The position numbers were made by a program. Below are positions 1 to 3,000 of a stretch of DNA of 64,000 nt, piece after piece. The first letter of the stretch is position 1; the number at the start of each line of letters is the position of its first letter. The stretch lies in the NCBI RefSeq assembly GCF_044647545.1, contig NZ_CP172818.1. The stretch is one strand, 5' to 3'. The stretch comes from Escherichia coli (lineage in GTDB: Bacteria > Pseudomonadota > Gammaproteobacteria > Enterobacterales > Enterobacteriaceae).

Positions 1-3000
1 TAACCGTCTGATGTGGATCTGGCGCGGCATTGACCCACGTGAAATCCTCGACGTCCAGGCGCGTATTGTGATGAGCGATGCCGAACGTACCGACGATGAT
101 TTATACGATACGGTGATTGGCTACCGCGGCGGCAACTGGATTTATGAGTGGGCTACCCAGGCGATGGTGTGGCAACAAAAAGCCTGTGCGGAAGAAGATC
201 CGCAACTCAGCGGTCGACACTGGCTGCATGCGGCTACGTTGTACAACATTGCTGCCTATCCTCATCTGAAAGGAGATGACCTGGCCGAGCAAGCGCAGGC
301 TTTGTCAAACCGCGCCTATGAAGAGGCCGCTCAGCGTCTGCCGGGCACGATGCGGCAGATGGAGTTTACCGTACCCGGCGGTGCGCCCATCACCGGCTTT
401 TTGCATATGCCGAAAGGTGATGGCCCGTTCCCGACAGTATTAATGTGTGGTGGTCTGGATGCGATGCAGACGGACTATTACAGCCTGTATGAACGTTATT
501 TTGCGCCGCGCGGCATTGCGATGCTGACTATTGATATGCCGTCGGTGGGCTTTTCTTCAAAATGGAAGCTCACCCAGGACTCCAGCCTGTTGCATCAGCA
601 CGTCTTAAAGGCGCTGCCTAACGTACCGTGGGTAGATCACACTCGCGTCGCGGCCTTTGGTTTCCGTTTCGGCGCTAACGTTGCCGTGCGTCTGGCATAC
701 CTTGAATCGCCGCGTCTGAAAGCGGTTGCCTGTCTTGGTCCGGTAGTTCATACCCTGTTGAGTGATTTTAAGTGCCAGCAACAGGTGCCGGAAATGTATC
801 TTGACGTTCTGGCGAGCCGTTTGGGGATGCATGATGCTTCCGACGAAGCGTTGCGCGTGGAGCTGAATCGCTATTCATTAAAAGTGCAAGGATTGCTGGG
901 ACGTCGCTGCCCAACGCCAATGTTATCAGGCTACTGGAAGAACGATCCGTTCAGCCCGGAAGAGGACTCACGCTTAATCACCTCATCATCTGCTGACGGT
1001 AAATTGTTAGAGATCCCATTTAACCCGGTGTATCGGAATTTTGACAAAGGTCTTCAGGAAATCACCGACTGGATCGAAAAACGATTGTGTTAAAAATTTG
1101 CTAAATTTTACCAATTTGGTAAAACAGTTGCATCACAACAGGAGATTGCAATGACGTTACCGAGTGGACACCCGAAGAGCAGATTGATCAAAAAATTTAC
1201 CGCACTAGCCCGTATATCGTGAAGGTAAGTGCGAAGATAATCGATTCTTTTTCGATTGTCTGGCTGTATGCGTCAACGTGAAACCGGCACCGGAAGTGCG
1301 TGAGTTCTGGGGCTGGTGGATGGAACTGGAAGCGCAGGAATCCCGTTTTACCTACAGTTACCAGTTTGGTCTGTTCGATAAAGCAGGCGACTGGACGAGT
1401 GTTCCGGTAAAAGACACTGAAGTGGTTGAACGACTGGAGCACACCCTGCGTGAGTTTCATGAGAAGCTGCGTGAGCTGCTGGCGACGCTGAATCTGAAGC
1501 TGGAACCGGCGGATGATTTTCGTGATGAACCGGTGAAGTTAACGGCGTGAGTGAAATGTGCCGGATGCATCACATCCGGCAATATCCATTAAAACTGATA
1601 GGTCATGCCAACCGCGACAATATCATCATTATTGATGTTCAGCTTATTATCGCTATCCAGTTGGTTTATTTTATAATCAACAAATGCCGACATATTTTTG
1701 TTGAAATAATACGTAGCACCAACATCGATATAATTGACCAGATCTTCATCACCGATTCCTTCAATATCTTTCCCTTTCGATAAGACATAACCCAGCGACG
1801 GACGCAGACCAAAGTCAAACTGGTATTGGGCGACCGCTTCAAAGTTCTGTGTCTTATTGGCAAAGCCGCCAGTTATTGGCGTCATTTTGCGTGTTTCAGA
1901 ATAGAAAGTTGCCAGATAAATATTATTGGCATCGTATTTCAGACCTGTTGCCCATGCTTCTGCACGCTTGCCTGTACCACGGCTTTGCAGGTTCTGCTCG
2001 TTGGTGCGATCAGAGTTGGTATAGGCTCCACTGATGGCGAAATCGCTGCCACCAAAGTCATATGTCAATGACGTGCCGAAGCCATCGCCGTTTTGCTTTT
2101 TAACGTCGCGGTTTTCGTTTTTCCCTTGATATTGCAGGGTTAAGTTCAGACCATCGATAACGCCGAAGAAGTCGGTGTTCCGATACGTCGCCAGACCGCT
2201 GGCACGTTTGGTCATAAAGTTGTCGGTCTGTGCGGAGGAGTCGCCACCAAACTCCGGGAACATATCGGTCCAGGCTTCCACGTCATACAGCGCGCCCAGG
2301 TTACGACCATAATCGAAAGAACCCAAATCTTTATATTTCAACCCGGCAAAAGCGAGACGTGTTTTTTGCTGTGCAGTATCACTCTCCGCTTTATTACCGG
2401 CAAACTCTGCTTCCCAACGACCATAACCCGTCAGTTGATCGTTAATTTGTGTTTCGCCTTTAAAACCAAAACGGATATAACTCTGGTCGCCATCTTTACT
2501 GTCGTTATCACTCATATAATGCATGGCTTTAACTTTGCCATAGACATCCAGTTTATTACCGTCTTTGTTATATATTTCTGCGGCCTTTACGGACGCAGAT
2601 GCCACAATGCCCATCACCACTAATGCCAGAGTGCTCTTTTTCATTTTCATTCCTGATTTTAATTAACGCGCGAATATTCAGCGGGAGAGCCCCGTTGAAA
2701 ACAGGAAAGTTTTTAACCTGAGATTGTTAAAGATATATTACAGATTAATGATATTCTTAAAATGTGGTAATTTATTAAATCTGTAATAAAAGCGTAAACA
2801 ACTGCCGCTACGCTTGCTGATCCCGCGCAACAAAACGCCATGCTTTGCTTGCAGATGGTTGGCAACCGACGACAGTCCTGCTAAAACGTTCGTTTGATAT
2901 CATTTTTCCTAAAATTGAATGGCAGAGAATCATGAGTGACAGCCAGACGCTGGTGGTAAAACTCGGCACCAGTGTGCTAACAGGCGGATCGCGCCGCCTG

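Follow-up and report, generated by a model that had tools for sequence, protein, structure and literature searches.

Crl is an assembly factor of RNA polymerase holoenzyme that binds sigma-S (NF008217, PF07417; PDB 6KJ6 chain J, 6OMF chain J and 2MZ8). The E. coli strain MG1655 carries IS1I in crl (PMC5210515, the EcoCyc paper), and this crl-minus allele is a known laboratory allele with raised motility (PMC10578931). A broken crl in a genome record can also be set beside described systems of a different kind, namely reference-guided, template-polished assemblies, in which the template is kept where there are no reads, insertions of the sample are lost, repeats are overwritten and non-homologous replacements come out as blends. 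Here we analyse the crl gene in a stretch of 64,000 nucleotides of E. coli (contig NZ_CP172818.1; the whole stretch is called the window below). The window opens within frsA (frsA'), followed by crl (1151-1550, + strand), phoE on the minus strand, proB, proA and thrW. The position of crl between frsA and phoE is conserved, and the order of genes is that of IAI39, W3110, ST648 and MG1655. The gene itself, as written, is broken.

The crl reading frame

An uninterrupted Crl frame of 133 codons is absent from the window as written. The break is read directly from the sequence, so that no comparison with chance was needed. The ORF that begins with the crl ATG at 1151 (+ strand) runs for 23 codons and ends with TGA at 1220-1222, and in alignment with the intact crl of IAI39, ST648 and W3110 two single bases are absent. 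The features of the gene are as follows.

1151-1222, + strand: truncated crl frame, 19 native Crl codons and 4 out-of-frame codons followed by TGA (ORF list and alignment to intact crl)
1208-1209, + strand: missing-G site, wild type CTAGGCCCG changed to CTAGCCCG, a GG run cut to G (window CTAG-CCCG in the alignment)
1217-1218, + strand: missing-T site, wild type TATATTCGT changed to TATATCGT, a TT run cut to T (window TATA-TCGT in the alignment)
1218-1550, + strand: Crl codons 24-133 and stop, in the shifted frame from CGT (Arg24) to the stop codon at 1548-1550; nucleotides as in ST648 crl
1278-1550, + strand: ORF of 90 amino acids from the GTG at 1278, the first start codon in the shifted frame; Crl residues 44-133, the piece reported by gene callers

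The two deletions lie 8 bp apart and shift the frame by -2 in sum; together they leave CTAGCCCGTATATCGT where the intact form has GGCCCG and ATTCGT. The earlier note had described a crl ORF that stops after 23 codons because of two single-base losses, with the rest of Crl in another frame, and alignment to the intact gene confirms this description. Its placing of the losses needs a partial correction. The first, put near 1209, does adjoin 1208, and GGCCCG is the wild-type sequence there. The second is not a C near 1221 but a T of ATT at 1217|1218, and the real codons are ATT CGT instead of the expected ATCCGT.

With the G and the T put back, the 402 nt of the gene are 100% identical to crl of ST648 and IAI39. 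The repaired product of 133 amino acids matches NF008217 with 225 bits (cut-off 117) over positions 1-133 of 133, which bears out the naming of the gene in the earlier note, and it matches PDB 6KJ6_J with an E-value of 3e-90. Neither of the pieces left in the window is a full-length Crl: the 23-residue ORF as written covers positions 1-19 of the profile only (17 bits), and the 90-residue ORF covers positions 45-133 (132 bits). No promoter or terminator was found in a scan of 1000-1700.

The allele in other genomes

Window positions 1101-1600 were compared with 5,426 complete E. coli genomes, and the best of these differ from the window by the two gaps only. A 37-mer that spans both deletions had 0 matches in this set, and so had 32-mers with the G deletion alone or with the T deletion alone (each 0/5,426). 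The wild-type 33-mer, our positive control, was found in 5,351 of the 5,426 genomes, and the stretch is thus nearly invariant. A 31-mer with the double deletion was likewise absent from genome_contigs (one genome per species) and from metagenome_contigs (JGI). Recurrence in related or independent genomes, which is expected of a genuine loss-of-function allele of crl, was therefore not seen (0/5,426). In the literature, a search for frameshifts of crl in natural strains turned up general rpoS/crl background only. We also considered that programmed frameshifting or reinitiation might rescue Crl and rejected it, since the net shift is -2 over two sites, is shared with no related genome and lies in a stretch that 5,351 genomes have unchanged.

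The 90-residue Crl fragment, as an exact protein, is present in the public collection in a cluster of 14 members. Elsewhere this ORF arises through other lesions, none of which is the double deletion of the window: R32* (CGA to TGA) in one assembly (L009, GCA_002547615.1), A6 to A5 in codons 14-15 in four independent Logan/ENA assemblies (L010, L012, L015 and L017), a 2-bp deletion in L011, ATG to ATA in L014 and N gaps in others. The A6-to-A5 query had a single match in the set of 5,426 complete genomes, which itself contained one mismatch; finished genomes therefore seldom carry small frameshifts in crl. The recurrent A5 allele is a candidate lineage marker and may be a real one, although L012/L021 is a noisy assembly. 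A 90-residue Crl product is annotated in DEC1A-type genomes too (EHU15239.1).

These data bear on the reading that an ST648-like isolate really carries a crl-null allele with both deletions, perhaps made in one complex mutational event. We regard this as improbable. The sequence as given is frameshifted, and other crl loss-of-function alleles do exist (crl::IS1I in MG1655, PMC5210515 and PMC10578931; R32* in GCA_002547615.1; A6 to A5 in four assemblies). Nevertheless, none of the 5,426 complete genomes and none of the collections searched has the allele, the 33-bp stretch is otherwise near-invariant (5,351 genomes), and with the first deletion in place a second one confers no selective advantage.

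A mosaic of ST648-type and K-12 sequence

A 25-kb query from the window had K-12 as its best match, at just 99.2% identity. We compared the window with K-12 and with an ST648 reference of phylogroup F (NZ_CP008697.1, crl at 1,072,640-1,073,041), which resolved it into the following parts.

1-5500: ST648-identical flank with frsA', crl, phoE, proB, proA and thrW; 0 mismatches and 2 gaps, both in crl
5501-45367: K-12-identical block of 39.9 kb with the CP4-6 prophage, argF, yagP and paoDCBA, and with IS30, IS5, ISEc19 and IS911 fragments in place (base-by-base comparison)
21709-22470: IS1 copy 1, at the K-12 position of IS1B; 55 SNPs and a 6-bp deletion relative to K-12
33174-33941: IS1 copy 2, at the K-12 position of IS1C; 30 SNPs relative to K-12
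57777-60224: 3' part of fdeC, at the place where K-12 has IS3; errors rise from the edge and the sequence is then garbled, with 65-88% identity and no long ORF

All 91 differences from K-12 in the block at 5501-45367 fall in the two IS1 copies, with 0 outside them. To the right of the block, 45368-56346 matches ST648 with 0 mismatches; its only differences are two run-length indels. In ST648 thrW is followed directly by yagU, and the K-12 block is exactly the DNA that ST648 lacks. On the left the switch between parents comes within 8 bp of the end of homology and on the right within 12 bp, and the right end of the block lies 5.5 kb beyond attR. Conversely, ST648 DNA is missing at the deletion points of K-12: a segment of 6.3 kb at 56346, with ST648 SNPs on both sides, and a segment of 585 bp (the 5' part of an aldo/keto reductase gene) at 61163, where the flanking ST648 SNPs continue. 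A 91-bp ST648 insertion is kept at 61211-61301 with one error, G to A at 61284. In ST648 the 6.3-kb segment encodes a flavin oxidoreductase, a hydrolase, two LysR regulators and two aldo/keto reductases.

The IS1 copies and the fdeC region depart from both parents. IS1 copy 1 shares 99.5% identity with a rare variant of IS1 that occurs on plasmids of 6.85 kb. For copy 2, no natural match above 97.8% was found among ~74,000 IS1 places, which marks it as a chimera of mixed reads. At the eaeH::IS3 junction of K-12, the window shows the K-12 junction bases and then the ST648 continuation of fdeC; there is a 3-bp gap at 57772, 4 bp from the IS3 breakpoint of K-12, and further deletions of 1 and 3 bp follow. 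The garbled part at 58460-60224 (~1.8 kb) resembles both IS3 and fdeC in collinear order: within 58.9-59.9 kb, the E-values are 1e-12 and 3e-15 for IS3 and 2e-34 and 2e-63 for fdeC, with ~66-68% identity to each. The whole interval 57772-60224 takes up 2.46 kb in the window versus 3.69 kb in ST648.

The source contig has the size of K-12 (4,499,902 bp), whereas the complete genomes listed as nearest to the window mostly measure 4.9-5.3 Mb. Its proteins are without NCBI accession. In the ST648 reference (L004), yafQ, dinB and yafP (8360-14762) are annotated as frameshifted, and fdeC is too. Some finished genomes of the ST648 lineage thus also hold pseudogene calls of the indel type, the reality of which is uncertain.

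A real hybrid, made in the laboratory or in nature by recombination of K-12 DNA into a chromosome like that of ST648 or the other way round, would place the crl lesion in a true recombinant and would account for a block of 39.9 kb that is 100% K-12 between ST648-type flanks. We hold it to be extremely unlikely. Switches 8 and 12 bp from the ends of homology are too short for homologous crossover, and a right end 5.5 kb past attR does not fit site-specific integration. Nor would a recombinant be expected to copy the deletions of K-12 while ST648 SNPs run on both sides, to alter its IS1 copies, one of them without natural counterpart, or to blend IS3 with fdeC. On the grounds of the short switches, the end beyond attR, the altered IS1 copies and the blend, both a K-12 x ST648 recombinant and integration of CP4-6 into ST648 were rejected.

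The same features form a different and consistent signature. Template sequence stands where the sample has no DNA, the switches fall at the boundaries of homology, insertions are lost and repeats overwritten, and blends occur at sites of non-homology. As judged from this pattern, the K-12 block, its switches, the lost insertions, the IS1 copies and the blend show that reads of the sample were mapped to, or used to polish, a K-12 template: the window is a consensus of ST648-like (phylogroup F) reads over E. coli K-12 and not a stretch of natural chromosome. MG1655 and W3110 are indistinguishable as the template here, as they are identical over the region except for crl::IS1I.

Differences from ST648 are indels only

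The ST648-matching sequence with homologues in K-12 (1-5500, 45368-57776 and 60240-64000; ~21.7 kb) has 0 substitutions relative to ST648. The differences are a 3-bp gap at a junction and four run-length changes of 1 base, namely GG to G and TT to T (both in crl), A6 to A5 at 46156 and T8 to T9 at 53201. In natural divergence substitutions outnumber indels, and no such spectrum is seen in these ~21.7 kb. A spectrum of indels only is what consensus error is expected to leave, as opposed to natural divergence.

Of the two changes outside crl, that at 46156 is intergenic, just downstream of yagU. At 53201, in ecpA (- strand), the window has one extra base in an A8/T8 run in codons 2-4, which shifts the frame relative to the annotated upstream start of ecpA in ST648; at the ATG of K-12 ecpA, ST648 has ATA. 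The extra base is probably another run-length error.

For a real double deletion in crl, these results cut both ways. The high accuracy of the other ST648-derived sequence (0 substitutions) might lend credit to the crl bases as well. On the other hand, two independent deletions 8 bp apart alongside 0 substitutions in ~21.7 kb would be an unnatural form of divergence, and they would stand in a computational chimera that holds other run-length indels and junction errors.

Position of the deletions relative to crl::IS1I

The one structural difference that the standard reference shows in crl lies close to the two deletions.

1220-1227, + strand: TGAAGGTA, the octamer that IS1I duplicated on inserting into MG1655 crl (NC_000913.3)

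The deletions of the window (1208|1209 and 1217|1218) are 11 and 3 bp to the left of TGAAGGTA. The earlier note had set its lesion apart from an IS1 in the crl of MG1655, and rightly so: IS1I does sit there, according to the genome comparison and to PMC5210515. The footprint of an imprecise IS1 excision was considered and rejected, since crl here is of ST648 type and since the 8-bp target duplication does not include the missing bases.

In the consensus, bases of the strain stand wherever its DNA is homologous to K-12, and where the sample has no homologue the K-12 template stays as it was. Large insertions particular to the strain are lost, and places where strain and template are non-homologous come out as blended, garbled sequence. 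The errors left in such a consensus are single-base length changes in runs of bases, and they collect beside structural breakpoints; GG to G and TT to T in crl belong to this type. The proposed course of events at crl is that the template may have been MG1655 (U00096.3/NC_000913.3), where IS1 interrupts crl 3 bp rightward of the second deletion, and that bridging the 776-bp difference (IS1 plus target duplication) might then have produced the two miscalls.

Some observations do not sit easily with this course. Runs of two bases are not the classic long homopolymers of platform error. An IS1 in the crl of the template would have been removed cleanly, yet the IS3 in eaeH was overwritten and not excised; the template may for that reason have been one without crl::IS1 (e.g. 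U00096.2 or W3110), in which case the proximity of the deletions to the IS1 site is a coincidence. Finally, mutations that inactivate crl do occur, such as the IS1 of MG1655 and, in other assemblies, R32* and A6 to A5.

The second of these points leads to a variant of the artefact, a plain run-length miscall of the platform that has no connection with a breakpoint of the template, the IS1 site being near by accident. We see this as possible but doubtful. All four of the four single-base indels relative to ST648 are run-length changes, the overwriting of IS3 in eaeH suggests that no IS of the template was excised and that its crl may have held no IS1, and other noisy assemblies (L020, L021) show the 90-residue Crl fragment along with many split neighbour genes. 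Against it, two errors at most 11 bp from the sole structural difference of the standard reference in crl would have a chance of ~0.002 (a rough figure, ~40 bp in 21.7 kb), and the 3-bp gap at 57772 is also associated with a junction, 4 bp from the IS3 breakpoint of K-12.

Discussion

Our data argue strongly that the crl frameshift is an artefact of the way in which the sequence was constructed, and that crl of the organism is most likely intact and equal to the ST648/IAI39 allele WP_000174682.1. We infer this from the pattern of the sequence alone. The earlier note had allowed for a sequencing error of the homopolymer type, and this is the reading that the evidence favours.

The earlier note expected that loss of Crl, which promotes formation of the sigma-S holoenzyme, would dampen curli and stationary-phase expression. 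For this organism that expectation is probably wrong, given a K-12-templated consensus, differences from ST648 that are indels only and an allele found nowhere else. If the allele were nonetheless real, it would be null, because the shift comes after only 19 native residues and the 90-residue ORF is without residues 1-43 of a small single-domain protein; a 23-residue peptide and, at best, N-terminally truncated residues 44-133 would be made. The expected phenotype would be that of crl-minus K-12, with less sigma-S holoenzyme and more flagellar expression and motility (PMC10578931). It would be a crl-null allele not recorded before, in an extraintestinal pathogenic lineage of ST648 type, and a natural case of sigma-S attenuation by loss of the assembly factor, not of rpoS, analogous to MG1655 crl::IS1 and to the attenuation of rpoS in natural isolates. 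Even so, one more natural crl-null allele would be of modest value, as attenuation through crl and rpoS is already well known.

Of wider consequence is the nature of the record. As it is a K-12-templated chimera, its calls of gene content and of pseudogenes, among them those for crl, ecpA and fdeC and the presence of CP4-6, argF and pao, should not be taken as biology, and other findings from the same window call for equal caution.

In its retained template, lost sample insertions, overwritten repeats and blends, the window resembles reference-guided assemblies, a likeness that is drawn from these traits only. Compared with known Crl, with which it shares the locus frsA-crl-phoE, the repaired protein of the window equals the E. 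coli Crl of 6KJ6 except for two residues, whereas the frame as written is broken after codon 19 and leaves a peptide of 23 residues and a C-terminal ORF of 90. Compared with crl::IS1I of MG1655 (U00096.3/NC_000913.3), the same short N-terminal stretch of crl is hit, the duplicated octamer being codons 24-27. The window, in contrast, has no IS1 in crl, its allele is of ST648 and not of K-12 type, and its lesion consists of two 1-bp losses.
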